A stretch of DNA of 64,000 bases from Alphaproteobacteria bacterium (lineage in GTDB: Bacteria; Pseudomonadota; Alphaproteobacteria; JAAXGF01): positions 14,991 to 78,990 of the forward strand of contig CBDCME010000027.1 in the NCBI GenBank assembly GCA_965218865.1, given 5' to 3'. This document shows positions 2,520-53,006 of the stretch, in pieces (the stretch's first letter is position 1; every line of letters starts with the position of its first letter). The notes beneath the pieces were generated by a model, which saw only the letters and a list, made by a program, of their open reading frames with translations, was not told the origin of the DNA and ran no database searches. Made by a program: the position numbers and the translations under genes.

Positions 2520-2849
2520 TCAACGAGGCGTCGTCGGGTTCAGATGGGTGCTCAGGTAGTTGAGGATGCGCCGCCGCGCCAAGGGTTCCAGCGCCGGCAT
2601 GCCCTGTTCAGCCACCATCCAGTCGAGGGTTTCGTCCCACACTTCCTGGCTCAGGCGTTGCTGGACGACGAGGCGGAGGGAATGACAGGCCGAGCACGTC
2701 TCGACAACCTCCTGACGGCCCTCGCCGAGGGGAAGTTCGGGGATCTTCGCCTCCTCGGCCGCCGCCGACATGGCGGTGACAACGATCCCGGCGAGCGCCA
2801 GTTGGCGCCGGGTGGACCCAACCGGGGCGGGTTTCTCGGCCGCCGTCAT
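2520..2849 (-). CDS. sorB: monohaem cytochrome c subunit of sulfite dehydrogenase, SorB-like
   Basis: 109 aa with a single CSACH haem-binding motif. It overlaps by 4 bp and is co-oriented with the upstream molybdoenzyme gene. Confidence 0.55.
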   Translation of the reverse strand: MTAAEKPAPVGSTRRQLALAGIVVTAMSAAAEEAKIPELPLGEGRQEVVETCSACHSLRLVVQQRLSQEVWDETLDWMVAEQGMPALEPLARRRILNYLSTHLNPTTPR

Positions 2850-4159
2850 GCGGCGACCTTGAGCGCGATCCGGTGCATCGAATTATTCAAGTATCCCTTG
2901 GGGTTCCAAGCAATCTCGAATGGTTGCGCGCGGCCTTCGTCGTCGCTGGCGCGGGCCCAGATTTCGTAATAACCGCGTCCCGGCAAGCGGATTTTCGCCC
3001 GCCAATGCTGCCAAGCGTAGCGGTTGCGGGGGGAATCGAGCTGGGCCCGAGTCCAGGTGGCGCCGAAATCATGCGAGACGTCGACCCGGGTGACCGAGCC
3101 ATCCCCAGCCCAGGCGTGGCCGCCGACCTCGAACGAGGCCCCCGGCAGCGTGGTCCCGGTCATCGGACGGGTTATGAGCGACTTTATCGGCATAGATTCG
3201 ATGACTCGAAAATCCGCCTCGGGCACCTTGGCGCCCGGCGCCACGGGATAAGCGGGAACGCGATACGATTTTCCGGTCATCTTGGGGCCGTCGTGAACCC
3301 GGTCCCGAAGCCACAGGCGGCGCAGCCATTTGCCCGAGACCGACCCGGGCCAGCCGGGGGCCACGAGGCGGACCGGAAAACCGTGCCATGGAGGCAGCGG
3401 CTCGCCGTTCATCCGGTACGCCAGGATGGTATGGGGGTCGAGCATTTTGGTTATCGGCGCGCCCCGTGAAATCACGACTTTTTCGGGGTCGCCCGAGAGG
3501 TGGAGGTCGGCGCCGTAGTAAGCCGTAAAGACCGCGCTCGACTTGATTCCGGCCACCTTCAGGACGTCACGGAGCCGTGCCCCCGTCCATTCCGCGCAGC
3601 CGACCGCGCCGACGGTCCATTGGTTTCCCCTGGCCGGCGGATTGAAGGCGGCCCGGCCATTGCCCCCGCATTCGAGTTGGAGTTGTAACGTTACCTCGGG
3701 AAAATCCTTCATCAGCTCGCTCAGGCCCAGCCGCAGCGGGTTTTCGACCTCGCCGTCGATGACGAGCGACCAATCCTTCGCCTTCATGGCGCCCGCCGCC
3801 TCCGGCACCACACCGTTGTTGCGGATGAAATGACGGTGGTTCGGCGTCACGGCGTCATCGAGCAAATGGGCCGGTGTCTCGGCGTTGACCGGCCGGTCGT
3901 TGAGAACCGTCAGGCCATCTTTCCCCGCGATCGTGAAGGATTCGGGGGTTTCGGCGAGCGCCGCCGGGATAAGCCCGGCCGGCAAATTGCGGCTGAAGGG
4001 AATGTTCGCGCCGACGGCGGCGCACATCGCCGCCAGACCCGCACCCTTCAAGAAACCACGCCTGCCGGCCCCGGCGCGGCGCCCGAAAACCAGGAAATCG
4101 GCGCCATCCGGATCGTCCTGGTAAAGAGCGCATATTCCACGTTCACGTCGTTCCTGCAT
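2846..4159 (-). CDS. sorA: sulfite:cytochrome c oxidoreductase molybdopterin subunit, SorA/SoxC-like (sulfite oxidase family)
   Basis: Sulfite-oxidase-family Mo-binding and dimerisation domains. Twin-arginine (TAT) signal motif RRGFLKGAGLAA. The exact start codon is uncertain. Confidence 0.65.
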   Translation of the reverse strand: MQERRERGICALYQDDPDGADFLVFGRRAGAGRRGFLKGAGLAAMCAAVGANIPFSRNLPAGLIPAALAETPESFTIAGKDGLTVLNDRPVNAETPAHLLDDAVTPNHRHFIRNNGVVPEAAGAMKAKDWSLVIDGEVENPLRLGLSELMKDFPEVTLQLQLECGGNGRAAFNPPARGNQWTVGAVGCAEWTGARLRDVLKVAGIKSSAVFTAYYGADLHLSGDPEKVVISRGAPITKMLDPHTILAYRMNGEPLPPWHGFPVRLVAPGWPGSVSGKWLRRLWLRDRVHDGPKMTGKSYRVPAYPVAPGAKVPEADFRVIESMPIKSLITRPMTGTTLPGASFEVGGHAWAGDGSVTRVDVSHDFGATWTRAQLDSPRNRYAWQHWRAKIRLPGRGYYEIWARASDDEGRAQPFEIAWNPKGYLNNSMHRIALKVAA

Positions 4160-9746: not shown

Positions 9747-11240
9747 ATGAAACCGACCCTGCGCCCGCGCTCGCCAAACGCGCTGCTGACGGTGGCGCAC
9801 ATGTACGCCGCCGATAGGGCGGCGGAGACGTCGGGCGTTCCCGGGGAACGACTCATGGAGGCCGCCGGCGAAGCCATCACGACGTCGATCCGCGAACGCT
9901 GGTCACCGCGACCCGTGGCCGTGCTTTGTGGTCCGGGAAACAACGGCGGCGACGGCTTCGTCGTCGCCCGCCTGTTGCAACAGACGGGATGGCCGGTTTC
10001 CCTGGCCGTGCTCGGAAATCCCAACAATCTCAAGGGGGAAGCGGCCACCATGGCGCAACGCTGGGATGGCGCCGTGACGTCACTAACGCCGGAGATCCTC
10101 GACGGTGCCGGCCTGGCGGTGGACGCCTTGTTCGGTGCCGGCCTTGCCCGGCCCTTGAAAGGCGCCGCCCGCGCGGTCGTCGAATCGCTCGACGATCGCG
10201 GCACGCCCTACGTGGCCGTGGACGTGCCCAGTGGCGTCGACGGCAACACGGGCGCCATCCTCGGGGCGGCCGCCCCGGCCGCGTTGACGGTGACGTTTTG
10301 CCGGCGGAAACCGGCTCATCTGCTTCTGCCCGGCCGAATCCTATCCGGCGAGGTCGTTGTCGCCGACATCGGGATACCGGAGGCGGTGCTCGACGACATC
10401 GATATTCGAACTTTCGTCAACGGTCCCGGCCTTTGGGAACGGCGGTTTCCCTGGCCCGGGGCCGCAAGCCACAAATACAGCCGCGGACACGCCGTCGTCG
10501 TCGGCGGAGACGCCGTGGCGTCCGGCGCCGCCCGCCTGGCCGCCCGGGCGGCGTTACGGGCGGGGGCGGGCCTGGTTACCATTGCCTGTCCGGCCGAGGC
10601 CGCCACGGTGTACGCCGCGCAGTTGACGGCCGTGATGGTCGTGGCGATCACGAACAACGATGCCTTTGCCGAGGTCCTGGCCGATCCGCGCAAGAACGCG
10701 ATCCTCCTCGGTCCCGGGGGCGGAATCACGGAGCGGACCCGGCGCGGAGTCCTGGCGGCACTTGCCGCGGAGAAGGCTTGTGTCCTCGACGCCGACGCGC
10801 TTTCTGTATTCGAAAGTAAGAAAAAACAACTATTTGAAGCGATTCTCTCAGAATGCCTCTTAACGCCGCACGAGGGCGAGTTTCGCCGCCTTTTCGGCCT
10901 CGAGGGTGATAAACCGGGGCGGGCCCGGGCCGCCGCCGAAAAGTCTGGGGCGAGCGTACTCCTCAAGGGACCGGACACGGTGATCGCTTCGCCGGACGGG
11001 TACGCGGTCATCAACGACAATGCCCCGCCCGAGTTGGCCACCGCCGGATCGGGCGACGTTCTGGCCGGAATCGCGTTGGGGCTGATGACCCAGGGTCTGT
11101 CGGCCTTCGACGCGGGTTGTTGCGCCGCTTGGTTGCACGGGGCGGCGGCGGCACGGATTGGATCTGGTCTGATCGCCGAGGATATCGGCGAGGCCCTGCC
11201 CGCGGTCCTTGCCGAGCTGAAGGGGCGGGGCGCTCCCTGA
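9747..11240 (+). CDS. nnr: bifunctional NAD(P)H-hydrate repair enzyme Nnr (YjeF-N epimerase plus ADP-dependent dehydratase)
   Basis: CGPGNNGGDG motif in the N-terminal domain and GSGDVLAG in the C-terminal domain. GGAGGGGGGG ribosome-binding site before the ATG. Confidence 0.8.
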   Translation: MKPTLRPRSPNALLTVAHMYAADRAAETSGVPGERLMEAAGEAITTSIRERWSPRPVAVLCGPGNNGGDGFVVARLLQQTGWPVSLAVLGNPNNLKGEAATMAQRWDGAVTSLTPEILDGAGLAVDALFGAGLARPLKGAARAVVESLDDRGTPYVAVDVPSGVDGNTGAILGAAAPAALTVTFCRRKPAHLLLPGRILSGEVVVADIGIPEAVLDDIDIRTFVNGPGLWERRFPWPGAASHKYSRGHAVVVGGDAVASGAARLAARAALRAGAGLVTIACPAEAATVYAAQLTAVMVVAITNNDAFAEVLADPRKNAILLGPGGGITERTRRGVLAALAAEKACVLDADALSVFESKKKQLFEAILSECLLTPHEGEFRRLFGLEGDKPGRARAAAEKSGASVLLKGPDTVIASPDGYAVINDNAPPELATAGSGDVLAGIALGLMTQGLSAFDAGCCAAWLHGAAAARIGSGLIAEDIGEALPAVLAELKGRGAP

Positions 11241-41882: not shown

Positions 41883-43022
41883 CTAGAGCCGTCCTTTCCA
41901 TTCGCCGCCACGGCCGATCCAGTGACGGCGTGCCGAATTCATGGTCATGGCGACGAAAAACGCGGCGGCGACGGGAAGGAGAAACGCCGAAACGCGCCAC
42001 CGGCGGTAAAACGCCAGGGTGGGCATGTACGCGGCGGCCATGAATAACCAGACGGCCCCGCCGAGACACACGTGCCCGAGACGTCCGGAAGCAATCCCGG
42101 CCAGGGCGAAAACGGGACCCACCCAATAGGTCAGCGCCATCCCGAGGACGGTGCCCGCGAGCAAGAACGGCGAGTGCCGCAGTTGAGTGTAGGCTGTCCG
42201 GGCGACCATCGACCAAACATTCGCCAAGCCCGAATAGGGACGCAGGCTGCGTGTCGTTCTCGCGAGGCCGATCCAGAGGCGGCATCCGTGTCCGATTTTC
42301 AGGCTCCGGGCAAGGGCGCAATCGTCGATCAAGGCGCCGCGAATCGCCGCCAACCCTCCGGCGCCCAGGAGCGCCGACTTGCGGACCAGCATGCATCCGC
42401 CCGCCGCCGCCGCGATTCGACTCGCCGGGTCGTTGACAAGGGGAAACGGATACAGTTTTTGGAAAAAGAAAACGAACGCGGGGATGAGGAGACTTGGCCA
42501 AAATCCCTGGCTGTCGAGCCGTACCATCAACGAAACCAGATCAAGCCGCTCCGCGACCGCCTTGGCGGTCAAACGGCGAAGGTTGTCGCGGGGATGTTCG
42601 ACGTCGGCGTCGGTGAACCACAGGAACTCGGGGGTATTTTCGAGGCCGTGACGAACACCGTGTTCGAGGGCCCAGGGTTTGCCGCGCCACCCGTTCGGAG
42701 GCGCTGTCCCCTCGATCACCGTCAAGCGATGGCGCGAGGCCAACGCGGCCGCCGCTCGCGCCAGCTCGGCGGTGCCGTCATGACTGCCGTCGTCGACGAC
42801 CACGACGTCAAATTTGCCCGGATAATCCTGGCCCAGCAGCGACGCCAGGGACTCGGCGATGCAGGCCGCTTCGTTCCGCGCCGGAACCACGGCGGTGACA
42901 CGGGGCCATTTCGCCGGGGCGGGGAAATTCGGGCCCAGGAACGGTGCCGCGCGCCAGAATCCTCCGCGGAGGAAAAGCAGATCGAGCCAAATCGTCAGCG
43001 CGAGACAAAGAGTCAACGTCAT
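41883..43022 (-). CDS. family-2 glycosyltransferase, HpnB-like
   Basis: VVPARNE...DVVVVDDGSHDGT, followed by LIPAFVFFFQKLYPF..AAAAGGCMLVR..IRGALIDDCALA. Transmembrane segments at both ends. Confidence 0.65.
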   Translation of the reverse strand: MTLTLCLALTIWLDLLFLRGGFWRAAPFLGPNFPAPAKWPRVTAVVPARNEAACIAESLASLLGQDYPGKFDVVVVDDGSHDGTAELARAAAALASRHRLTVIEGTAPPNGWRGKPWALEHGVRHGLENTPEFLWFTDADVEHPRDNLRRLTAKAVAERLDLVSLMVRLDSQGFWPSLLIPAFVFFFQKLYPFPLVNDPASRIAAAAGGCMLVRKSALLGAGGLAAIRGALIDDCALARSLKIGHGCRLWIGLARTTRSLRPYSGLANVWSMVARTAYTQLRHSPFLLAGTVLGMALTYWVGPVFALAGIASGRLGHVCLGGAVWLFMAAAYMPTLAFYRRWRVSAFLLPVAAAFFVAMTMNSARRHWIGRGGEWKGRL

Positions 43023-43128
43023 CGGTGCGGAATTTCTTGATTAGTTTTCGCCCCTTCGGCAAGCTTGAGGCGGTCGCATACCCTGCCAATGATAACTATC
43101 GCCCTCCTTCAACGGGAAATATCGCTCT

Positions 43129-44292
43129 TTGTCGATGCTGGCGGATAGCGACGTGTTCGTGGAATCGTCCTCAGACGACCCCATACTCTTGACCCCGGGG
43201 CCCCTGGCGACGTCGCCGGCGACCAAGCGGGCCATGATGCACGACTGGGGTTCGCGCGATCGCGAAGTCGTCTCGATGACCGCGCGCGCGCGCGCGCGTC
43301 TGTTGGCCCTGGCCGGGGCCACCGAAAATCATGTTTGCGTCCCGCTGCAAGGGAGCGGAACCTTCGCGATCGAAGCGGCGATCGGGACCCTGGTGCCGCG
43401 CGGCGGCAAGCTCCTGGTTCCGGTCAACGGCGCCTACGGACAGCGTATGGTGCGGATCGCCGAGGTCTTGGGGCTGGCCCACGTGGCGACGACGACACCC
43501 GAAAACTTGGCCCTCGATCCGGAGCACGTCGGCGCCGTTCTCGATTCGGATCCGGCGATCGGCGACGTGGCCGCGGTCCATTGCGAAACCAGCAGCGGGG
43601 TTTTGAATCCGGTGGCCGAGATCGCGCGTCTCGTCGACAAACGCGGAAAGCGGTTGTTGGTCGACGCGATGAGCGCCTTCGGGGCCATCCCTCTCGACGC
43701 GGCCGAGGTTCCCTTCGATTCCATGGTGTCCTCGTCGAGCAAGTGTCTCGAGGGCGTGCCCGGCCTGGCCTTCGTCATCGCGCGACGCGATTCATTGGCG
43801 AAGCGCGGCGGAAACGCGCGTTCGCTCAGTCTCGACCTCCATGATCAGTGGCGCACTCTCGAACGCACGGGCGAGTGGCGGTTTACGCCGCCGACCCAGG
43901 TATTGGCGGCCCTCGACCAGGCCTTGACCGAGTTGGACGAGGAGGGCGGTATCGCCGCCCGCGGCGGGCGTTACCGGAGGAACCGCGATCGCTTGGTAAA
44001 AGGCATGCGCGAAATGGGATTCGCAACCCTCCTTGCGGATGACGTCCAGGCGCCGATCATCGTTACTTTCCTCGCGCCCGCCGATCCGAACTGGCGATTC
44101 GAGACTTTCTTCGCCGGATTACGGCGGCGAAACTACGTCATTTATCCCGGCAAACTGACGGCGGCGGAGAGTTTCCGCGTCGGCTGCATCGGTCATCTCG
44201 GCAACGACGCGATTCCGGGCCTGATCGAGGCTGTCCGGGCGACAATCGATGAAATGGGTCTTGTCAATCGCGGTCCGGCGCCGGGCCAATGA
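43129..44292 (+). CDS. phnW: class-V aminotransferase, PhnW-like (2-aminoethylphosphonate--pyruvate transaminase)
   Basis: N-terminal LLTPGPLATSPATKRAMMHDWGSRD signature. Confidence 0.6.
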   Translation: MSMLADSDVFVESSSDDPILLTPGPLATSPATKRAMMHDWGSRDREVVSMTARARARLLALAGATENHVCVPLQGSGTFAIEAAIGTLVPRGGKLLVPVNGAYGQRMVRIAEVLGLAHVATTTPENLALDPEHVGAVLDSDPAIGDVAAVHCETSSGVLNPVAEIARLVDKRGKRLLVDAMSAFGAIPLDAAEVPFDSMVSSSSKCLEGVPGLAFVIARRDSLAKRGGNARSLSLDLHDQWRTLERTGEWRFTPPTQVLAALDQALTELDEEGGIAARGGRYRRNRDRLVKGMREMGFATLLADDVQAPIIVTFLAPADPNWRFETFFAGLRRRNYVIYPGKLTAAESFRVGCIGHLGNDAIPGLIEAVRATIDEMGLVNRGPAPGQ

Positions 44293-44306
44293 TCAACGGC
44301 AATCGA

Positions 44307-44676
44307 TCACTTGTTCGCGTCACGCCGCTTTTTCGCGACCGCATCCGCCGATAACGGATCGGCGCCCTCGAATTCCAACTCGAGCGGTTTCTCGTCCGTC
44401 GCCTCGTTCAGGGAGGTTCCCTTGGCTGCTCGCAAGAGCCATCTGCGGGCCTGGTCGGTGTCCTTTTTGACGCCTTGTCCGATGTGGTACATCACCCCGA
44501 CGAATACCTGGGCCTCAACATTCCCCGTCTGCGCAAGAGGCAGCAAGATTCGGAACGCGGTCGCGTAATCCTGGACCAGGTACGGACACCCCAGCCTGAA
44601 AATCCGCCCGCGCCGGAAGCACGCAGACGACCGTCAAGACTATCGCGAGCGCGATCCGCCGTATCGTCGATTTCAT
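44307..44676 (-). pseudogene. small exported Sel1-repeat protein disrupted by a 1-nt frameshift near 44590
   Basis: The signal peptide plus DFQAGV is in one frame. PYLVQDYATAFRILLPLAQTGNVEAQVFVGVMYHIGQGV continues in another frame. Confidence 0.55.
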
Positions 44677-44853
44677 GGCCACTCCAGCGCCGTTCCTTCC
44701 CCTGTTGAATAGTCCGAAAACCCCCTGGCCGCAACCGGGTTACCACCGATAACGATTGGGGGTTCGTTCGGGGTGGTGGCAACTTTATCGTTGGTCTGAT
44801 ATGAGCACAACAGTGTGCTCCCTGGCACACCGTCCCTTTCGACGAACCCGCAT

Positions 44854-45102
44854 TCAGCGCGCGTCATCGAAGAATTGAAACATAGCGGATGCAGGAAGAG
44901 TGATCGGCGGGGCGCCAACCTGTCGAATGAGATATGGCCCCCGGCCAAACCGACGCACGGCTTCGGTCGCGGCGTTGTCGAGTGAATCGTACGCACCGAT
45001 GAATTCACCATCATGGAACACGACCCACTTGCCATGATGATGTTGCTCAAGCTCTTCGCGCTTGGCGTCGTACGCCGCGATGTCTTTGTCTAGTTCCGCC
45101 AT
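44854..45102 (-). CDS. small hypothetical protein of 82 aa
   Basis: Compact ORF with sequence HGKWVVFHDGEFIGAYDSLDNAATEAVRRFG. No function assigned. Confidence 0.4.
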   Translation of the reverse strand: MAELDKDIAAYDAKREELEQHHHGKWVVFHDGEFIGAYDSLDNAATEAVRRFGRGPYLIRQVGAPPITLPASAMFQFFDDAR

Positions 45103-45429
45103 CGGAGAATTCCCCTACCGCAAAAACCTAAGCATAGGAAGCATGTGTTGCACAACAATGAACGGCAGCCCCCATCGAGGTGTCCAATTATTTTGTGTAA
45201 TGATACCCGCCACGGCATGCTCCCACAAGTTGCGCAGTGATGACGGTGGACATGACCGTGCGACGAAAGCTGGGTTCGGGGGACGCGATACTTGATCTTT
45301 TATGCCCACCGCTCGTCAGCCGTGAGGATCAGATGGACCTGGTTGGACAAGCTCGGCGTCCGCATCTCTCCTTTCGGGGCCTACTCGGAGTTCACTCGCG
45401 ACCCGCTGGGTTGCTCAGCCGCCCAAGGC

Positions 45430-45653
45430 GGCCTTTGTCGCGGGGCTTCGATCCAGCCGGTACCCCAACCAAACCGCCCGCCAGCACCCAACCAACAATT
45501 ATCCGCGTGGAACCTGCCTCCACTGGCATTCCGCGCCCTCGTGGCGCACTAAAGAGGCGAAGTCTCAAGGGGTAACGGTCCTGGCAACCCGAAAGCCGAT
45601 GAAGCTGTAGCGGACGGAGGCGACGTCCCCGAGCCGAATTGTACGTCTCCAGC
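45430..45653 (-). pseudogene. decayed partial copy of the 3' end of a DGR-type FGE target gene
   Basis: Only 29 codons (45653-45564) remain open. They end ...SFIGFRVARTVTP*, which is 75-90% identical at the nucleotide level to the 3' end of the caspase-FGE gene. The adjoining 45430-45548 is homologous to 50790-50935. Confidence 0.55.
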
Positions 45654-45886
45654 TTTATCGAGGATTCCGATATTTCCGGCGGCCGGAACATCCCCTCGAC
45701 CCGGCACTCGGTAGTTCGTGTTACTGGGCGGCCATGCCTATATAGTCGCCCGTGAAGAACGCGTAAGCGGCTGATGTTGGTAGCTCTTTCGGTTTGGCGA
45801 AGTAATCGGATTTGCAAGAAAACGGGTTTTGGGCCTGAAAAGCTTGCGATTTGAAATAATTGATTTTGGGGATTCCCTTCCGTTGC

Positions 45887-47338
45887 GGAACGTGATTCTC
45901 TGCTCCCGTCGATTGGGATTGGAGAACTGTGATGAAGCCATCGCGCAAGGTGTCATCGGGAATAGAGGACCTGTTCCGCTCGCGGTTCGAAAACATCATC
46001 AACCTGCGCCACGAGTTGGTGGTGTTGGGGGGCCGGATCGCGTGGACTTTCTTCGACGAGACCTATGAAGCCTTGTATTCGGAGGAGGGTCGGCCGGGGG
46101 TCCCGACGCGGTTGATGGTTGGGCTGCACATCCTCAAGCATATGTTCGATCTCTCGGATGAGGAGGTCTGCGAGCGCTGGGTCTACGACCCATACTTCCA
46201 GTGCTTCTGCGGCGAAGAGTACTTTCAGCATGAGCTGCCCATGGAGCGCTCGTCGATGACCCGGTGGCGGGACCGGATCGGTCCGGAAGGTTTGGAGAAG
46301 GTATTCCAGGAGAGCCTGGCCGTGGCCCACCGGGTGGGGGCGCTGCGGGAGAAGGACCTCGAGCGGGTGATGGTGGACACCACCGTACAAGAGAAGGCGA
46401 TTGCCTTTCCGACCGCCGCCAAACTGATGCAACGAGCCCGCGAGCGGCTGGTGCGACTGGCACGGGAGCACGGCATTGCCCTGCGTCAGTCCTATACCCG
46501 CCTGGGCAAGAGGGCGTTGATCATGCAAGGCCGCTACCGCCATGCCAAACAGCACAAGCGGGCCAACAAGGCCCTGCGCAAGCTCAAGACCTATCTCGGG
46601 CGCACCGTCCGCGACATCCGCCGCAAGACGGCCCAGGAGGAGAGCCTACGGGATACCTTCCGCCGCCCCTTGTGGCTGGCCGAGCGGGTGTCGACCCAGA
46701 AGCGGCGCGACCCCTTGCCCAAGGTCTATTCGCTCCACGCGCCCGAGGTCGAATGCATCGGCAAAGGGAAGGCGCACAAGCCGTACGAGTTCGGCTGCAA
46801 GGTCTCCGTGGCGGCGACCAATTCCCGCCCCCCCGGCGGCCAGTTCGTCGCCCACGTCAAGGCCTTCCACGGCAATCCCTATGATGGCCACACCTTGAGG
46901 CAGGTGATCGAAGAGATGGAACGCTGGACGGGGATATCGGCCGAGCGCATCTATGTCGACAAGGGATACCAGGGCCACTATTACCCCAACAAACACCGCG
47001 TCTTTAGATCAGGCCAGAAACGCGGCATCACGCCGACGATCAAGAAGGAGCTCAGGCGGCGCTCCGCCGTCGAGGCCGTGATCGGACATCTCAAGAGCGA
47101 TGGCAGGCTGGGGCGCAACTTCCTCAAAGGCCGCGACGGCGACAAGATCAACGCCATCCTCGCCGGCGCCGGCTACAACTACCGCCTTGTCCTCAAATGG
47201 CTGAGGCGTTTGTTTGTCCAAATCCTGGCCGCGCTCCTCAGCGACATCTCGCACCCCACCGCAAACCCAATCGCCGCTTCAGATTGAAATCAGGGTTCTT
47301 CACGGACGACTCTATAAATGCGCCCCGCAAGGATGTGG
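45887..47338 (+). mobile_element. IS5-family insertion sequence of about 1.45 kb
   Basis: Imperfect terminal inverted repeats: GGGATTCCCTTCCGTTGCGG at about 45889 and the complement of AATCCCACATCCTTGCGG at about 47319. Boundaries are good to within +/-10 bp. Confidence 0.6.
45929..47287 (+). CDS. IS5-family transposase (DDE), intact, 452 aa
   Basis: Shows DTTVQEKAIAFPT, YEFGCKVS, YVDKGYQG and AGYNYRLVL. Confidence 0.75.
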   Translation: MMKPSRKVSSGIEDLFRSRFENIINLRHELVVLGGRIAWTFFDETYEALYSEEGRPGVPTRLMVGLHILKHMFDLSDEEVCERWVYDPYFQCFCGEEYFQHELPMERSSMTRWRDRIGPEGLEKVFQESLAVAHRVGALREKDLERVMVDTTVQEKAIAFPTAAKLMQRARERLVRLAREHGIALRQSYTRLGKRALIMQGRYRHAKQHKRANKALRKLKTYLGRTVRDIRRKTAQEESLRDTFRRPLWLAERVSTQKRRDPLPKVYSLHAPEVECIGKGKAHKPYEFGCKVSVAATNSRPPGGQFVAHVKAFHGNPYDGHTLRQVIEEMERWTGISAERIYVDKGYQGHYYPNKHRVFRSGQKRGITPTIKKELRRRSAVEAVIGHLKSDGRLGRNFLKGRDGDKINAILAGAGYNYRLVLKWLRRLFVQILAALLSDISHPTANPIAASD

Positions 47339-47403
47339 GATTTGTGCTCCCAGATCGGGAACAAATCACTTGATCCCATTTTGGGATCGGAGTAGGGTGG
47401 GTC

Positions 47404-47712
47404 ATGAGGATTATCGCCCGAAGGACGCTCAAAGTGTTCTGGGAGCGGCATCCCCTCGCCGAGCAACCCTTGAAGGCGTGGTTCAGGTTTGCAAAGGCTG
47501 CCCTTTGGGATTCACCGGCGGCCGTGAGGACGGACTACCGAAGCGCGAGCATCCTCGAAGATAACGGGGTTTGCTTCAACATCGGCGGAAACAGGTTCCG
47601 CCTGGTCGTGAAGATAAATTACCCATACCGAATTGTTTACATTCGGTTTGTCGGTACCCATGCCGAGTACGACAGGGTGGACGCGACGAAGGTTTGGGAG
47701 TTCCGACGATGA
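47404..47712 (+). CDS. higB: type II toxin HigB (RelE/ParE superfamily)
   Basis: Shows FNIGGNRFRLVVKINYPYRIVYIRFVGTHAEYD. It is upstream of an HTH antitoxin and overlaps it by 4 bp. Confidence 0.75.
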   Translation: MRIIARRTLKVFWERHPLAEQPLKAWFRFAKAALWDSPAAVRTDYRSASILEDNGVCFNIGGNRFRLVVKINYPYRIVYIRFVGTHAEYDRVDATKVWEFRR

Positions 47713-48092
47713 AAATAATGCCGATCAAGGATGAAGGGGATTACGCGGCCGCGGTGGTCGAAATCGACGGCCTGATGGACGCCGAACCGGACACCCCCGA
47801 GGGCGACCGTCTCGACGTCCTGACCACGCTTGTCGCGGATTGGGAGGAGAACCACCACGCGATCGAGGAACCGGACCCGATCGAGGCCATCGTTCACCGC
47901 ATGGAAGCCCTTGGTCTGGAACGCAAGGACCTGGAGCCGATGATCGGCACCCGGGCCCGGGTCTCCGAGGTTCTCGGCCGCAAGCGCCCGCTGACGATCA
48001 AGATGATCCGGCGACTCAACAAGGAATTGCGAATTTCGGCGGACGTGCTGATCCGTGCCTACGACGTTGAGGAATCCACCCCTTTAGCATGA
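47709..48092 (+). CDS. higA: HigA-type antitoxin with a C-terminal XRE-family HTH
   Basis: Shows LEPMIGTRARVSEVLGRKRPLTIKMIRRLNKELRISADVLI. Confidence 0.7.
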   Translation: MKIMPIKDEGDYAAAVVEIDGLMDAEPDTPEGDRLDVLTTLVADWEENHHAIEEPDPIEAIVHRMEALGLERKDLEPMIGTRARVSEVLGRKRPLTIKMIRRLNKELRISADVLIRAYDVEESTPLA

Positions 48093-48261
48093 CAGCGCCT
48101 TCAAGGGCCTCCAACTCCGTGGCCTGGATGCGATCCCCGAGAAGGAATCTCTGGCTCCTCGGAAACTTCTCGACCGTTGGGACGAGCCAGAGAATAAACA
48201 CGTACATTTGCTCCGACGCCGGGCCAGTGCGCCGGGACCCGTCGGCCAGCTTTCCATCCAT
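48016..48261 (-). pseudogene. truncated Avd-like (DGR accessory variability determinant, four-helix-bundle) gene
   Basis: YVFILWLVPTVEKFPRSQRFLLGDRIQATELEALEG aligns with the Avd helix-1/2 region. The last ~25 codons are read from the antisense of the higA 3' end. The gene lies just downstream of the VR-bearing gene on the same strand. Confidence 0.4.
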
Positions 48262-48286
48262 CGCTTCAATATCCCAAAAAATTTCG

Positions 48287-48303
48287 CTGGGGCTCCGCCC
48301 CAG
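48287..48303 (-). other. GC-rich hairpin, ctggggc-tcc-gccccag, about 25 nt downstream of the VR-bearing gene's stop
   Basis: 7-bp stem with a 3-nt loop. The position matches the hairpin that follows a DGR variable region. Confidence 0.4.
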
Positions 48304-48328
48304 TTCCAAGAGGTTAAGATTTAAAGTG

Positions 48329-50686
48329 TCAAGGAGTAACAGTCCTGGCAACCCGGAAGCCGATGTCGTCGCTTCGGTTGGAGGTGTCGTCCCCGGCCCG
48401 ATTCGCGGAACGTACGACCCTCGGAGTGCCGTCCCAGGAGCCGCCGCGCAGAACACGGCGAGAACAATTTCCCTTTGTCCAAGCCGAGACATTTGATGGT
48501 GCACCCCTATACGAGTCGTTCCAGCAATCCCCGACCCATGCCCACACGTTGCCCAGCACGTCATGCAAACCAAACCCATTGGCCTGAAATCTCCCCACCG
48601 GTGCCGTCTGACCATAGCCATCGCGACAATCGTGATGCACCCATGAAAATCCGTTTTCCGATTTACTGGTTTGGTCATGTACGTTCGCGTAGCCGCAGGC
48701 ACCGCTTGAATTGCTTCCCCAATAACGGGCTGCCGTCGTCCTGGCCCGCGCCGCGTATTCCCATTCCGCTTCGCTCGGCAGACGGTATTCCTTCCCCGTC
48801 TTTCCGCTCAGCCAACGGACGTAGGCTTTCGCGTCTTGCCAATTGACGCAGGCAACAGGATGGGAATCGCTCTGTGAATATCCCGGATCGCGCCAGTTCC
48901 GGGACGAATCTTCTTGCCATTCGCCAGCTTGATAAATCCGACAACCGTCGCTCGTCTTGTGGCCCGTGGCGCGGACAAAAGCTTCAAACCCCCCTCGCGT
49001 CACCTCGTACTTGCCCAAGGCAAAGGCTCGGGGAATCCGAACCTCGTGCTGAGGTCCCTCGTCGTCGTAACGCCCCTTCTCGCTTGCCGGAGACCCCATC
49101 GTGAAATTGCCCGCCGGGATCACCCCCATCTCTGGGCACTCGGGGCAGTCCTTAAAGGTGGAACCAGGTTCCTTCGTTCCCGGATAAATCCCCACCGCCG
49201 GCTGGGCCGGGGTTTCCGGCGCCGGCCTTTGCGGTACGGTCACCGCCGCGTACTGCTTGGCCCGGGCTCGGGCCAGAGAGGCAAATCTCCCCTTGGGGTA
49301 GGTTTCCAAATAAGCCTTGTAGTCCGCCGCGCTCGTGCTGTTCTTGACCGAATCCCAGAAAGCGATCTCGGCGGCAAGCGGATCGAGCTTCGCCGGTTCG
49401 GCCGGCGCCGGCGGCTCTGCCAGCGGTTCCCCCAGGAGCTTTGCGTAAACGTAAGCCGGTTTGCCTTCGTCCCCCTCGACCCGGTACCACTCCGCGTCCT
49501 TGACCTTACCGGTCACGGTTACGTGTTCGCCGGCCGACAGCTTCCCCACCTTCTCGTAGTCCGTCGACGGACCCGCCCGCAGGTTCACCGTCTTCACCGC
49601 CACCAGTTCGGTATCCATCGGGGCCACCACGATCTTCGGTGGGACAACCACGGCGACCTGCTTGTCCTCTTTCAGGCCGTCGAGGTGGCTCCTCGCGAGA
49701 GAGGCAAAGGCGCCGTCGGGATATTGAGCCAGATATCCCTCGAAATCGCGTGCCCTCCCACTGGCCTTGACCGACTGCCAATACTCCAATTCCATCGCCC
49801 GTTCGTCGAAGGCCGGCGGCGCCGGGGATATAGCGTCGCGCGGGATCGCCACCGTTCCCTTGATTTCGATGGGTATGAACAGAAAATCGCCGCCTTCGTG
49901 CGCCGCCATGCGGATATCCGAGTATTGGGGCGTTTGATCGGCGTTCATGACCACTGACTGGCGTACCTCGCGGAAAAGCTCCTGGCCGTCGAGGATGGTG
50001 TCGTTTTCGCGCAACGCCGTAAGAAACGCGGCGGCGAACACCGAATGCCCGCCGCTGCCGGCGTCCACCACCGGCTCCAGTCCGCCTGAAACCAACGCCG
50101 TGCGCGCCCGCTTGGCCGCCATGCGCCGCAGGTATTCGCTTCGATCGTCGCCCGTTCGAAGCTTGCCCGTTTCGGTCCGAACCAAGGTTCCGGAGTAACA
50201 CGAATCGGCCACCACCAGGACGTGCCGAGCCGTCATCGCCTTGAGGTGGCGGGTGATGGCGCGGACCGGAATCCAGTGGGTATCGCTTTCAGGCTCCGCG
50301 TCCACCGGCTGCCAGTAGCCGGTGCCGGTCTCGCGATCCAAGGTGCCGTGGCCAGCGTAGTAGATCAAAAGCCGGTCGTCCGGCGTCAAATTCCCGCGGT
50401 AACGGTTTATTTCCTCCAGAATGTCCGCGCGGGTGGCGTTGAGGATGAGTTTGACATCATAGTCGTACTTGAGCTTGAGCAGTTCGGCCACGGCGGCGGC
50501 GTCGCTGACCGCTGTTTTCAGCCGCGTCATATGGGCGTATTCGTTGTTGCCGATGACCAGCGCGTGGTAGTCACCGGCCACGTCGGCGATGACCGACGCG
50601 TCGCCGGTGGTTTCCACGACGGCGTGCCCCGCCACGAGCATCGCGCCTAGCGTCAGCGGAATGAAGGTCTGCCGGAATCGCCTCAC
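48329..50686 (-). CDS. exported caspase (peptidase C14)-SH3b-FGE/SUMF1 fusion protein with a DGR-type variable C-terminus
   Basis: Signal peptide. Caspase His/Cys dyad in YYAGHG and VVADSCYSG. Two YWQSVK/FWDSVK repeats. FGE fold with RLPSEAEWEYAAR. C-terminus reads VLRGGSW-DGT-PRVVRSANR-AGDDTS-NRS-DD-IGFRVAR. Confidence 0.8.
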   Translation of the reverse strand: MRRFRQTFIPLTLGAMLVAGHAVVETTGDASVIADVAGDYHALVIGNNEYAHMTRLKTAVSDAAAVAELLKLKYDYDVKLILNATRADILEEINRYRGNLTPDDRLLIYYAGHGTLDRETGTGYWQPVDAEPESDTHWIPVRAITRHLKAMTARHVLVVADSCYSGTLVRTETGKLRTGDDRSEYLRRMAAKRARTALVSGGLEPVVDAGSGGHSVFAAAFLTALRENDTILDGQELFREVRQSVVMNADQTPQYSDIRMAAHEGGDFLFIPIEIKGTVAIPRDAISPAPPAFDERAMELEYWQSVKASGRARDFEGYLAQYPDGAFASLARSHLDGLKEDKQVAVVVPPKIVVAPMDTELVAVKTVNLRAGPSTDYEKVGKLSAGEHVTVTGKVKDAEWYRVEGDEGKPAYVYAKLLGEPLAEPPAPAEPAKLDPLAAEIAFWDSVKNSTSAADYKAYLETYPKGRFASLARARAKQYAAVTVPQRPAPETPAQPAVGIYPGTKEPGSTFKDCPECPEMGVIPAGNFTMGSPASEKGRYDDEGPQHEVRIPRAFALGKYEVTRGGFEAFVRATGHKTSDGCRIYQAGEWQEDSSRNWRDPGYSQSDSHPVACVNWQDAKAYVRWLSGKTGKEYRLPSEAEWEYAARARTTAARYWGSNSSGACGYANVHDQTSKSENGFSWVHHDCRDGYGQTAPVGRFQANGFGLHDVLGNVWAWVGDCWNDSYRGAPSNVSAWTKGNCSRRVLRGGSWDGTPRVVRSANRAGDDTSNRSDDIGFRVARTVTP

Positions 50687-50755
50687 CGAGGTCCCCCTTT
50701 CCTGACATTATAGCAAGGAGGAGGGTTATGTGCCGGCAAATAGAAAATCCCGCGC

Positions 50756-51025
50756 TCAGCGGAGGTGGTGGTTGTCACCGCCGATCACGGGGCCAATCGG
50801 AATCGTCCACTGTTGCGGCGGGGCTTCGATCCAGCCGCTTGACCGACCAATCCCCCCGCCAGCACCCCCCCATAAATTGTCCGCTTGGAAGTTCACACGA
50901 CTGGCATTCCAAGTCCCCTTGGCGCACTCTTTGTCGTCTCCGTTCGTCAACGACCTGCACCACGGTTTCAGGTCACAAACGATGGCGCGCCCGCCGGTGA
51001 GAAACCGAGCCGCCGCCGTACCCAT
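50756..51025 (-). CDS. small Cys/Gly-rich hypothetical protein
   Basis: The ORF is open to 51100; start chosen at an internal Met. Its C-terminal half (..NAS..GAGGG..GWIEAP) has a decayed homologue at 45430-45548. Confidence 0.3.
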   Translation of the reverse strand: MGTAAARFLTGGRAIVCDLKPWCRSLTNGDDKECAKGTWNASRVNFQADNLWGGAGGGIGRSSGWIEAPPQQWTIPIGPVIGGDNHHLR

Positions 51026-51102
51026 GACGTCAGGTGAACGTTTCGTTGTATAGTGTTGTACGAATTGATTTTTATGGTATTGTGATGGTGTTGTTCTCAA
51101 GG

Positions 51103-51993
51103 ATGGTAGGAGCAGTCGTGGGGGGAATCGGCGACAGATTGGCGGGGGCGGCCCTTGCCATCGTCATCGCGATCGCGGCTTGGCCCGGGGTCGCCGGGGC
51201 CGGTGATTGGCGGGATCGCAAGACGATCGAGGCCGTCTTGCACCCGGAAAGATATACGGCCTTCGTCGGTATCGAGGATCCCGATGCCTTCGAGCGCGCC
51301 TGGGAAACCAACAAACCATGGGTTCTGGCGAATTTGGCCCACGCCGCTTATTTCGACGAGGACAAATTGTGTGCCTTGCTGGCGCCGTTCCTGCGCGCCG
51401 CGAATCCCTGCGAGCCGACCGCGACACCGGGGCCGCCACGGCTTCACGTCTATTCCAACGACGGATCCCAAGGTTATCTTGCCGTCTGGCCGGACAAGGC
51501 GGTCCTTGTTTTCCGCGGTACCGAGGTCCACAGCCACACCGACCTCCTCGCCGACGCCGATTTTATCCTTCAAGAACCGCTCGGGGAGGCTCGGGTGCAT
51601 CGGGGCTATCTCCGCGAACTCAACAAAATATGGCCGAATGTCTCCCGTGACTTGGAAACCTACCGCGAACTTCCGCCGATCCCGATCTGGGTTACGGGCC
51701 ACAGCATGGGCGCGGCGATGGCGACCCTCGCCGGGATGCGGGGGATTCCCTTCGAAGCGATCATCACTTTCGGAGAACCGAGAGTGGGACTCAACATCGC
51801 CTCGGCGTTTATGGCGAAACGCCACGTCCGCTACGTCAACGGGTACGACCCGGCCATCCACTATCCCTTCCCGATCGGCTATGAACACCATGGAGAAAAA
51901 GTCGAAATCGTCGATCCGGACGGGCCCAGAATATTCCATGACCACGCGATCGTTTATTATTCCGCGATTCTCGGGCGGGGGATGAACGAATGA
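51103..51993 (+). CDS. exported class-3 lipase (alpha/beta hydrolase)
   Basis: GHSMGAAMATL nucleophile elbow and a signal peptide. Start is at ATG 51103 or GTG 51118. Confidence 0.7.
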   Translation: MVGAVVGGIGDRLAGAALAIVIAIAAWPGVAGAGDWRDRKTIEAVLHPERYTAFVGIEDPDAFERAWETNKPWVLANLAHAAYFDEDKLCALLAPFLRAANPCEPTATPGPPRLHVYSNDGSQGYLAVWPDKAVLVFRGTEVHSHTDLLADADFILQEPLGEARVHRGYLRELNKIWPNVSRDLETYRELPPIPIWVTGHSMGAAMATLAGMRGIPFEAIITFGEPRVGLNIASAFMAKRHVRYVNGYDPAIHYPFPIGYEHHGEKVEIVDPDGPRIFHDHAIVYYSAILGRGMNE

Positions 51994-53006
51994 CCCCATT
52001 TCGCGCCGCTTCGGCCAATTCGCGCCATGGAAGAATCCCTTCGACGATCGTTTGGATCGTTTTCGTGTTTTCCTGGCTCGCCGCGACGGGGACCCTCGCG
52101 GCCGAACGCGATTTTTCCGTCTGGCTCGCCGAATTTCGCCAGGAAGCCACCCAGGCGGGGATTTCCCGCGCCACGCTCGAGGCGGCGTTCGCGGACACCA
52201 TGCCGATCCCGAGGATCGTCGAACTGGATCGGAAACAACCGGAATTTACCCAAACCTTTTCCGAGTACATGGCATTGCGGGTCACCGACGCCCTGGTGGA
52301 AGAGGGGCGCCAAGCGCTGCGCGCCAATCGCGACGCGCTCGAGGAAATCGGCCGCGAATACGGTGTCCAACCGCGATTCATCGTCGCCTTGTGGGGGGTT
52401 GAAACTCGGTACGGCACCTATACTGGGGGGTTTCCGGTGATCGACGCTCTCGCCACCTTGGCTTTCGACGCCCGCCGCGCCAGCTATTTCCGGGGCGAGC
52501 TCTTGAACGCCCTGAAGATTCTCGACGCCGGCCACATCTCGGTCGCCGATATGAAGGGTTCCTGGGCCGGGGCCATGGGCCAGAGTCAATTCATGCCGTC
52601 CACTTTTCTCCGTTCCGCGGTCGATCACGACGGCGACGGCCGCCGCGACATCTGGAATACGCCGGCCGACGTCTTCGCCTCGGCCGCCAATTACCTCACC
52701 CGGCTGGGTTGGCGTGACGATCAAACCTGGGGTCGTGAGGTCCGTCTCCCGGCGGATTTCGACCCCGAGTTGGTGGGCCACGAGACCATAAAACCGCTTG
52801 GGGATTGGCAAGCCCTAGGGGTTCGCCGAGCGGATGGTAGCAATCTCCCACGGCGCCAACTCGAAGCCTCGGTCATTCTGCCGGGCGGGCAGGGAGGACC
52901 CGCCTACGTCGTGTACGATAACTACCGCCGAATCCGAAAATGGAATCGCTCCGATTATTTTGCCATGTCCGTGGGAAGACTGTCGGATTTAGTGGGCCAA
53001 TACTAG
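51990..53006 (+). CDS. mltB: lytic murein transglycosylase (MltB family)
   Basis: Conserved MltB lysozyme-like core ..GAMGQSQFMPSTF... Confidence 0.75.
   Translation: MTPFRAASANSRHGRIPSTIVWIVFVFSWLAATGTLAAERDFSVWLAEFRQEATQAGISRATLEAAFADTMPIPRIVELDRKQPEFTQTFSEYMALRVTDALVEEGRQALRANRDALEEIGREYGVQPRFIVALWGVETRYGTYTGGFPVIDALATLAFDARRASYFRGELLNALKILDAGHISVADMKGSWAGAMGQSQFMPSTFLRSAVDHDGDGRRDIWNTPADVFASAANYLTRLGWRDDQTWGREVRLPADFDPELVGHETIKPLGDWQALGVRRADGSNLPRRQLEASVILPGGQGGPAYVVYDNYRRIRKWNRSDYFAMSVGRLSDLVGQY

Follow-up and report, generated by a model that had tools for sequence, protein, structure and literature searches.

Two group II intron 5′ stubs and a degenerate diversity-generating retroelement, probably unrelated, in one alphaproteobacterial locus

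In a 64-kb stretch of alphaproteobacterial DNA (contig CBDCME010000027.1; hereafter the window, with all coordinates given as positions within its 64,000 nt), a gene encoding a caspase-SH3-FGE protein is bracketed by two copies of a short repeat, A and B, and copy A lies just beyond a second sequence that resembles the 3′ end of the same gene. An earlier note on this DNA had described the repeat as conserved blocks separated by diverged spacers around a hairpin, and had proposed that it was either a linker left over from a tandem array of target genes or a structured DNA or RNA element linked to a diversity-generating retroelement (DGR). What, then, is this repeat, and does it have anything to do with the DGR-like genes that it flanks? 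The evidence described below very probably places two unrelated kinds of mobile-element debris side by side: the intron stubs A and B, and a degenerate DGR with a relic of a second variable repeat (VR), here called VR2.

When the window is compared with itself by BLAST, A (45440–45550) and B (50818–50928) are 78.4% identical over 111 nt (E = 1e-21), and these are exactly two copies. Aligned without gaps from a shared GUGCG, they agree at 86 of 111 positions and contain four perfect blocks, of 8, 11, 13 and 20 nt, where the earlier note had described four near-identical ones. The homology it drew between 45430–45548 and 50790–50935 is real, with the limits at B drawn too wide, as the homologous part is 50817–50927. 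The spacers between the blocks are indeed equal in length; of their identities (4/9, 20/32 and 10/17, or 44%, 62% and 59%), a single one falls below the 50% that had been stated for all. Both hairpins, GCGCC-ACGAG-GGCGC at A and CCAAG-GGGA-CTTGG at B, are also present. They had been reported at the same aligned position, and a covariance model does align that of B to the same first stem, but the two are offset from each other by 3 nt.

The identity of the repeat comes from RNA models and from its relatives. In a scan of the whole window against Rfam, the sole non-tRNA match is that of RF02003 (“Group II catalytic intron D1-D4-4”) to A, at 45391–45525 on the minus strand (55.5 bits, gathering score 49), and it spans the full model, positions 1–138; B alone has no match in Rfam. 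BLASTN of A against PLSDB retrieves 34 plasmid records at 75–79% identity, from Rhizobium, Bradyrhizobium, Mesorhizobium, Nitrobacter, Polymorphobacter and other hosts. Six of these relatives were inspected, five of them annotated, and all five annotated sites carry ltrA, the reverse transcriptase (RT)/maturase gene, 400–490 nt downstream on the same strand, with an IS256 inserted between the match and ltrA at one site. The full-length relatives contain, in order, RF02003 at 99–105 bits, a 440-aa RVT_1 and GIIM protein without an endonuclease domain, and, directly after it, RF00029 (domain V/VI).

The 5′ ends of the two copies tell the same story. Each begins with GUGCG, in agreement with the GUGYG consensus (45549–45545 in A and 50927–50923 in B), and each is aligned there with the 5′ ends of seven plasmid introns. 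A covariance model made from these seven intron ends with A and B excluded (model R1, whose E-values are rough) has exactly two matches in the window at E up to 1, namely A (45425–45549; 99.1 bits, E = 1.4e-20) and B (14.9 bits, rough E = 0.066). The model places the CCAAG-GGGA-CTTGG hairpin of B on its first stem, the stem that reads GCGCC-NNNNN-GGCGC in A and the relatives. The consensus fold of nine sequences has 55 pairs, 9 of which show compensatory double changes, and the co-varying helices confirm the suggestion that the block repeat is a structured RNA. B additionally has a weak direct blastn match to the Rhizobium tropici intron (E = 9e-4).

A and B come from a single lineage of alphaproteobacterial group II introns, each being the 5′ end of one copy, and the two copies have diverged. 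The pattern of blocks and spacers arises because both belong to a group II intron domain I ribozyme: in the blocks it is the ribozyme sequence itself that is conserved, the variable spacers correspond to helices in which the sequence changes and base pairing persists, and the hairpin of the earlier note is the first stem-loop of the intron. Over intron nt 1–115, A and B are 77% identical to each other, and to the plasmid introns A is 65–73% and B 53–59% identical. The two form a subfamily of their own, with a common 5-nt deletion and common blocks, and in these comparisons each is the closest relative of the other. Several pairs of the consensus fold are broken in B, which looks more decayed, or older, than A.

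Neither copy is whole. Alignment with the full-length introns covers intron nt 1 to ~207 in A and nt 1 to ~110 in B, and nothing beyond. The remaining ~1.7 kb of the intron has no blastn match in the 64 kb, the intron proteins have no tblastn match there, and the window contains no open frame of at least 150 aa with an RT-type YxDD. RF00029 is absent from the window at gathering score and from 43000–52000 at E up to 5. Set beside the alphaproteobacterial ltrA introns of the plasmids (RF02003 plus RF00029, with an RT/maturase lacking the endonuclease domain), A and B share the 5′ GUGCGCC, the first hairpin and the sequence and structure of domain I over ~207 nt (A) and ~110 nt (B), at 65–79% identity. 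They are dead 5′ stubs, fragments unable to splice or move, because the rest of domain I, domains II–VI and the RT/maturase gene are gone.

Loss of the 3′ part with retention of the 5′ end is a described decay route of bacterial group II introns (Toro et al. 2014, PMC4181065). The RmInt1-related fragment FRE652 of Sinorhizobium, from the same work, is like A and B an intergenic 5′ remnant that has lost its 3′ terminus and is inert; it differs in intron lineage and host, and one of the window stubs stands directly after a DGR-type gene end. What the comparisons establish for A and B is identity, extent and truncation, and the order of events we infer. Full-length introns would have retrohomed into both sites and would later have been shortened from the 3′ end. 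No relationship is seen between the sequence 5′ of A and that 5′ of B, which points to two separate, independent insertions, with ...CGCCUCUUUA at A and ...GACGACAAAGA at B as the candidate exon-side sequences for pairing with the exon-binding sites EBS1 and EBS2. The insertion targets of the relatives are varied, and several lie inside transposase genes. Varied insertion targets are usual for group II introns.

The genes between the two stubs have a different origin. The caspase-SH3-FGE protein matches Pfam Peptidase_C14, SH3_3 and FGE-sulfatase, and its FGE-sulfatase domain extends to residue 781 of 785, so that a VR (VR1) occupies the 3′ end of an FGE-fold target gene and is followed by a hairpin. 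Beyond the hairpin lies a truncated avd, which matches NCBIfam NF033474 (DivGenRetAVD) with E = 5.5e-8 and 33 bits (cutoff 80) over profile positions 5–45 of 104, and Pfam bAvd with E = 0.006. A phmmer search with the stub peptide returns 903 relatives, including full-length Avd proteins of 120–135 aa at 67–71% identity, and all of them match only residues ~5–57 of the window peptide. The truncation point coincides exactly with the end of higA. The impression that Avd homologues exist in truncated form only was an artefact of a word index, as exhaustive phmmer finds full-length Avd; many of the phmmer relatives are shorter than 100 aa.

No DGR RT gene is found in the 64 kb, nor is a template repeat (TR), as the window has no third copy of the repeat. 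The locus is a degenerate DGR: the caspase-SH3-FGE target is intact, a hairpin and a stub of avd remain, and TR and RT are missing from the 64 kb. In the DGR of Bordetella phage BPP-1, the parts are target, avd, TR and RT, with an initiation of mutagenic homing (IMH) site and a downstream hairpin. The window likewise presents a target, a GC-rich hairpin and then an avd stub, and has AAC-type variable codons; it differs in that avd is cut at about residue 45–57 and in the lack of both TR and RT.

Earlier work has described degenerate DGR loci, remote targets and DGR neighbourhoods shaped by transposons (Doré et al. 2024, PMC10907252). In common with those loci, the window has an FGE-fold C-terminal VR on a conflict-system-like protein, here a caspase effector, machinery that is missing or pseudogenised, and transposable elements inside the locus. 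It differs from them in the lack of TR and RT across 64 kb and in the orphan 78-nt VR relic beside an intact target. The same VR1 is carried by two near-identical assemblies, one of which differs elsewhere in the protein, so that it is identical in three such assemblies; the comparison argues against recent VR1 diversification.

A related degenerate DGR is found on a JGI metagenome contig (L020) that was reached through homologues of the Avd-like peptide. It contains an FGE target with a VR (2631–2755), a hairpin, an avd stub (2848–3063) and an intact, AAC-rich TR (3173–3297), which is 84% identical to the VR over 125 nt, with 14 of the 20 mismatches at TR adenines. VR1 with its downstream spacer and hairpin aligns with the corresponding part of L020 with a score of 85 (shuffle maximum 28). 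The hairpin of the window (48287–48303), ~25 nt after the caspase-FGE stop, aligns in position with GC-rich hairpins of L020 and of a further related locus, L015, whose sequences are different; it could be a DGR target-recognition hairpin, a terminator, or both. No RT is found at the L020 DGR. Downstream are genes for a TnsA-like protein and TniB, an arrangement suggesting that the RT of L020 was replaced by a Tn7-like element. A peptide downstream of the L020 avd stub, considered as an RT C-terminus, has no family support.

The second VR-like sequence of the window can be examined against this background. VR2 (45560–45637) is 78.2% identical to VR1 (48324–48401) over 78 nt in the self-comparison (E = 5e-13), and no third VR copy is found in the window. 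The earlier note had placed a VR-like gene end at 45653–45564 on the minus strand; a second VR-type copy is indeed there, with its stop codon at 45567–45565. Over 69 codon-aligned nt, VR1 and VR2 show 17 differences, 13 of them at codon positions 1–2. The codons concerned all end in C (GAC/GTC, ACC/GCC, AAC/GTC, AGC/TAC, GAC/AGC, GAC/TTC and GCC/CTC), and the 4 third-position differences are all synonymous. Judged by the TR of L020, 10 of the 17 mismatches fall at TR adenines, which make up 16 of the 69 positions (Fisher one-sided p = 2e-4). The claim that the copies differ at AAC-type codons is borne out, and the distribution supports the notion that the differences are scars of adenine-directed mutagenesis.

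At its 3′ end VR2 carries the VR-type GCCAGGAC, an ending shared with the VRs of the window, L015 and L020; the TR of L020 has GCCAGCAC instead. It also keeps the last codons of the target gene, the stop and part of the downstream spacer, and so reaches to or past the point at which TR and VR of L020 diverge. With its VR-type GCCAGGAC and the retained gene end, VR2 is therefore read as a relic of a target gene and not as a TR, in agreement with the earlier note. The gap between its stop and A is 15 nt, not the 10 nt reported before, and this spacer weakly resembles the spacer downstream of VR1 (TTGA.ACTT, CCTCTT).

Upstream, the similarity does not go on. The earlier note had read an extension, SWRRTIRLG, with indels relative to VR1; the 101 nt upstream of the VR2 block align with the sequence upstream of VR1 no better than shuffles do, and the FGE-sulfatase hidden Markov model (HMM) does not match the VR2 peptide, the equivalent VR1 peptide being matched at E = 5e-9. 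This extension does not hold. The stretch 45640–45733 has no significant similarity to FGE, VR, TR or Avd sequence. The 90–100 nt upstream of VR2 were also considered as the 3′ end of avd or as FGE coding sequence, and were rejected on both counts, with no HMM match and alignments not above shuffles; a ‘CSGRR’ similarity seen there by eye failed testing.

VR2 would then be the last 24 codons and the stop of a second FGE-type DGR target gene, once whole, the body of which has since been lost. It would last have been rewritten by adenine-directed mutagenesis, and intron A would have inserted 15 nt after its stop, in the spacer that at VR1 precedes the GC-rich hairpin.

The alternative that VR2 is a former TR, its adenines lost by self-directed mutagenic homing before the element decayed, is unlikely. 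The minus-strand order (target, avd stub, insertions, VR2) puts VR2 where a TR is expected, downstream of avd, and its homology to VR1 is limited to a block of the size of a repeat, upstream of which no FGE coding sequence is seen. Engineered Bordetella-phage DGRs reportedly mutagenise their own TR once IMH* is replaced by IMH. Against a TR speak the features of the 3′ end just described (the VR-type ending, the last codons of the target, the stop and some of the spacer), as the TR of L020 ends differently and diverges earlier, and VR2 spans only the 3′ two-thirds of a repeat.

How, then, do the intron stubs relate to the degenerate DGR? No intron signal is present in the related DGR-target loci that were fetched (L003–L009 and L015–L020), and the intron family is widespread without DGRs, as the 34 plasmid records show. 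A metagenome scan with a 20-mer common to A and B gave 10 loci, none with an intron signal, so that these are chance matches. We take the association of intron and DGR to be juxtaposition only, in a patch of mobile-element debris. That the A/B intron lineage homes into the spacer between VR and hairpin, or otherwise tracks DGR target cassettes, is accordingly given very little credence; were it true, such homing would be a recurrent route to disabling DGR targets or hitch-hiking on them, and the flanking, same-strand stubs would be no coincidence.

We consider it equally improbable that A and B form a structured RNA or DNA element with a function in the DGR-like locus, such as a cis-acting site used in target recognition or in handling of the template. 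In its favour are the position of both copies, which flank the target locus and share the orientation of its genes, the 15-nt distance of A from a VR-type gene end, and the co-variation of the helices. The same element, however, heads complete group II introns in the 34 plasmid records with no DGR nearby and is found in none of the related DGR-target loci, and the cis hairpin of this DGR family, at 48287–48303, has a different sequence.

More improbable still is that the locus descends from a tandem array in which every target gene had the same linker behind it. Such an array would account for two VR-type ends and two linker copies in direct orientation within 5.5 kb. Nothing VR-like is found ahead of B in the self-comparison, however, and the 5′ flanks of the two copies differ, as noted above; at A the supposed linker runs on as intron over ~207 nt, and it can be aligned with introns from other places; and A and B differ by 22%, while three synonymous sites are the only differences in the 3′ part that the two VRs have in common. 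Of the two proposals made for the repeat in the earlier note, the structured RNA thus survives, as the 5′ end of group II intron domain I, and both the DGR link and the array linker fall away. That the blocks encode the conserved C-terminus of a small paralogous protein, as open frames on both strands across A and B and some conserved residues might suggest, is ruled out by the strong covariance-model matches and the intron context of the relatives, as well as by perfect 8–20-nt blocks without synonymous variation beside spacers of 44–62% identity and the failure of any Pfam family to match any frame.

Several points weigh against the reading of intron stubs beside a decayed DGR. B taken by itself has little behind it (no Rfam match and a rough R1 E-value of 0.07), and its identity derives mainly from its homology to A. 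The regions containing the exon-binding sites lie beyond the truncation points of both stubs, so that pairing between intron- and exon-binding sites lends no support to retrohoming into these positions. A and B flank the locus and have the orientation of the DGR genes, which we treat as a coincidence, though an unproven one. The homology of VR2 ends ~40 nt short of a full VR, with no FGE-like sequence upstream, and the adenine test substitutes the TR of L020, a related locus, for one from this genome.

Read on the minus strand, from right to left, the locus consists of B, the caspase-SH3-FGE gene, the hairpin with its T-run, the Avd-like frame, higA/higB, the IS5-family element, ~95 nt, VR2, the spacer and A (Table 1).

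Table 1. Features of the locus in window coordinates
Feature	Position	Strand	Description or basis
Group II intron 5′ fragment A	45343–45549	−	~207 nt of domain I; starts GUGCGCC at 45549
Spacer from VR2 stop to intron A	45550–45564	−	15 nt; 5′-exon flank of A
VR2 relic	45565–45639	−	24 codons and stop, reads IRLGDVASVRYSFIGFRVARTVTP*; similarity to VR1 and codon analysis
Stretch between VR2 relic and IS5 target duplication	45640–45733		~95 nt
IS5-family insertion sequence	45738–47317	+	Transposase 45929–47287
higB and higA-like toxin-antitoxin pair	47404–48092	+	higB 47404–47712; higA-like 47712–48092
Truncated avd (DGR accessory gene)	~48213–48091	−	N-terminal ~40% left; NF033474, bAvd
GC-rich hairpin, then T-run	48287–48303	−	CTGGGGC-GGA-GCCCCAG; downstream of VR1
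Caspase-SH3-FGE target gene	48329–50686	−	785 aa; VR1 at 3′ end, roughly 48335–48460
Group II intron 5′ fragment B	50813–50927	−	~110–115 nt; starts GUGCGCC at 50927

Two insertions lie between avd and VR2. The IS5 transposase matches Pfam DUF772 and DDE_Tnp_1, and the element ends in inverted repeats of ~22 nt with a probable 4-bp target duplication, ATGC, at 45734–45737 and 47318–47321. Because of these repeats and the probable duplication, the element is read as a simple later insertion and not as the cause of a deletion, and the VR2 side and the higB promoter side would therefore once have been contiguous. HigB matches Pfam HigB_toxin (E = 6e-29), and HigA has a weak match to TIGR02607 (E = 0.049). 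It is higBA that abuts the truncated avd, at the position expected for the remainder of that gene. The suggestion that the IS5 element broke up the locus does not stand; higBA sits at the site of the missing DGR parts, and IS5 would have inserted later.

The arrangement of an FGE target, a GC-rich hairpin and an avd stub of ~45–57 residues without a nearby RT recurs in the window, L015–L018, L019 and L020, in three unrelated contexts (kinase-FGE, caspase plus FGE, and FGE alone). The avd stubs of the window and L015 differ mostly at third codon positions. Segmental duplication of the target with a breakpoint in avd is a possible cause of the recurring stubs. More distant caspase-FGE homologues (L004–L009) have no DGR parts beside the gene, and a search of the contig collection with the caspase-FGE protein returned only a distant planctomycete FGE protein. 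In L004, a contig crowded with transposases, a sequence resembling a tRNA 3′ end, GGTCGTGAGTTCGAATCTCGCCGGGTGCGCCA, lies at ~10860–10895, ~400 nt downstream of the related caspase-FGE gene; it may mark an integration site.

Further features lie at the margins of the window locus. A terminator-like hairpin on the minus strand, TCCGC-TGAGC-GCGGG followed by ATTTTC (50749–50763), separates stub B from a TATAAT-like box that precedes the start of the caspase gene. Just past the truncated end of stub A is an 82-aa frame (44854–45102, minus strand) with a weak match to DUF5678 (E = 0.077), followed by a Sel1-repeat fragment at 44307–44546.

The intron stubs and the DGR relic add examples to kinds already known and constitute neither a new RNA element nor a new gene array; what had appeared to be a novel RNA with co-varying helices, linked to a hypermutation system, resolves into two well-known decay products. 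For group II introns, the locus illustrates that 5′ stubs of 100–200 nt can go unannotated, one of the two here escaping Rfam entirely. For DGRs, it adds one more degenerate example, in which the caspase-FGE target is intact and is accompanied by an orphan VR relic and a stub of avd. Should an active DGR exist elsewhere in the source genome, its remote targets could still include the caspase-FGE gene.

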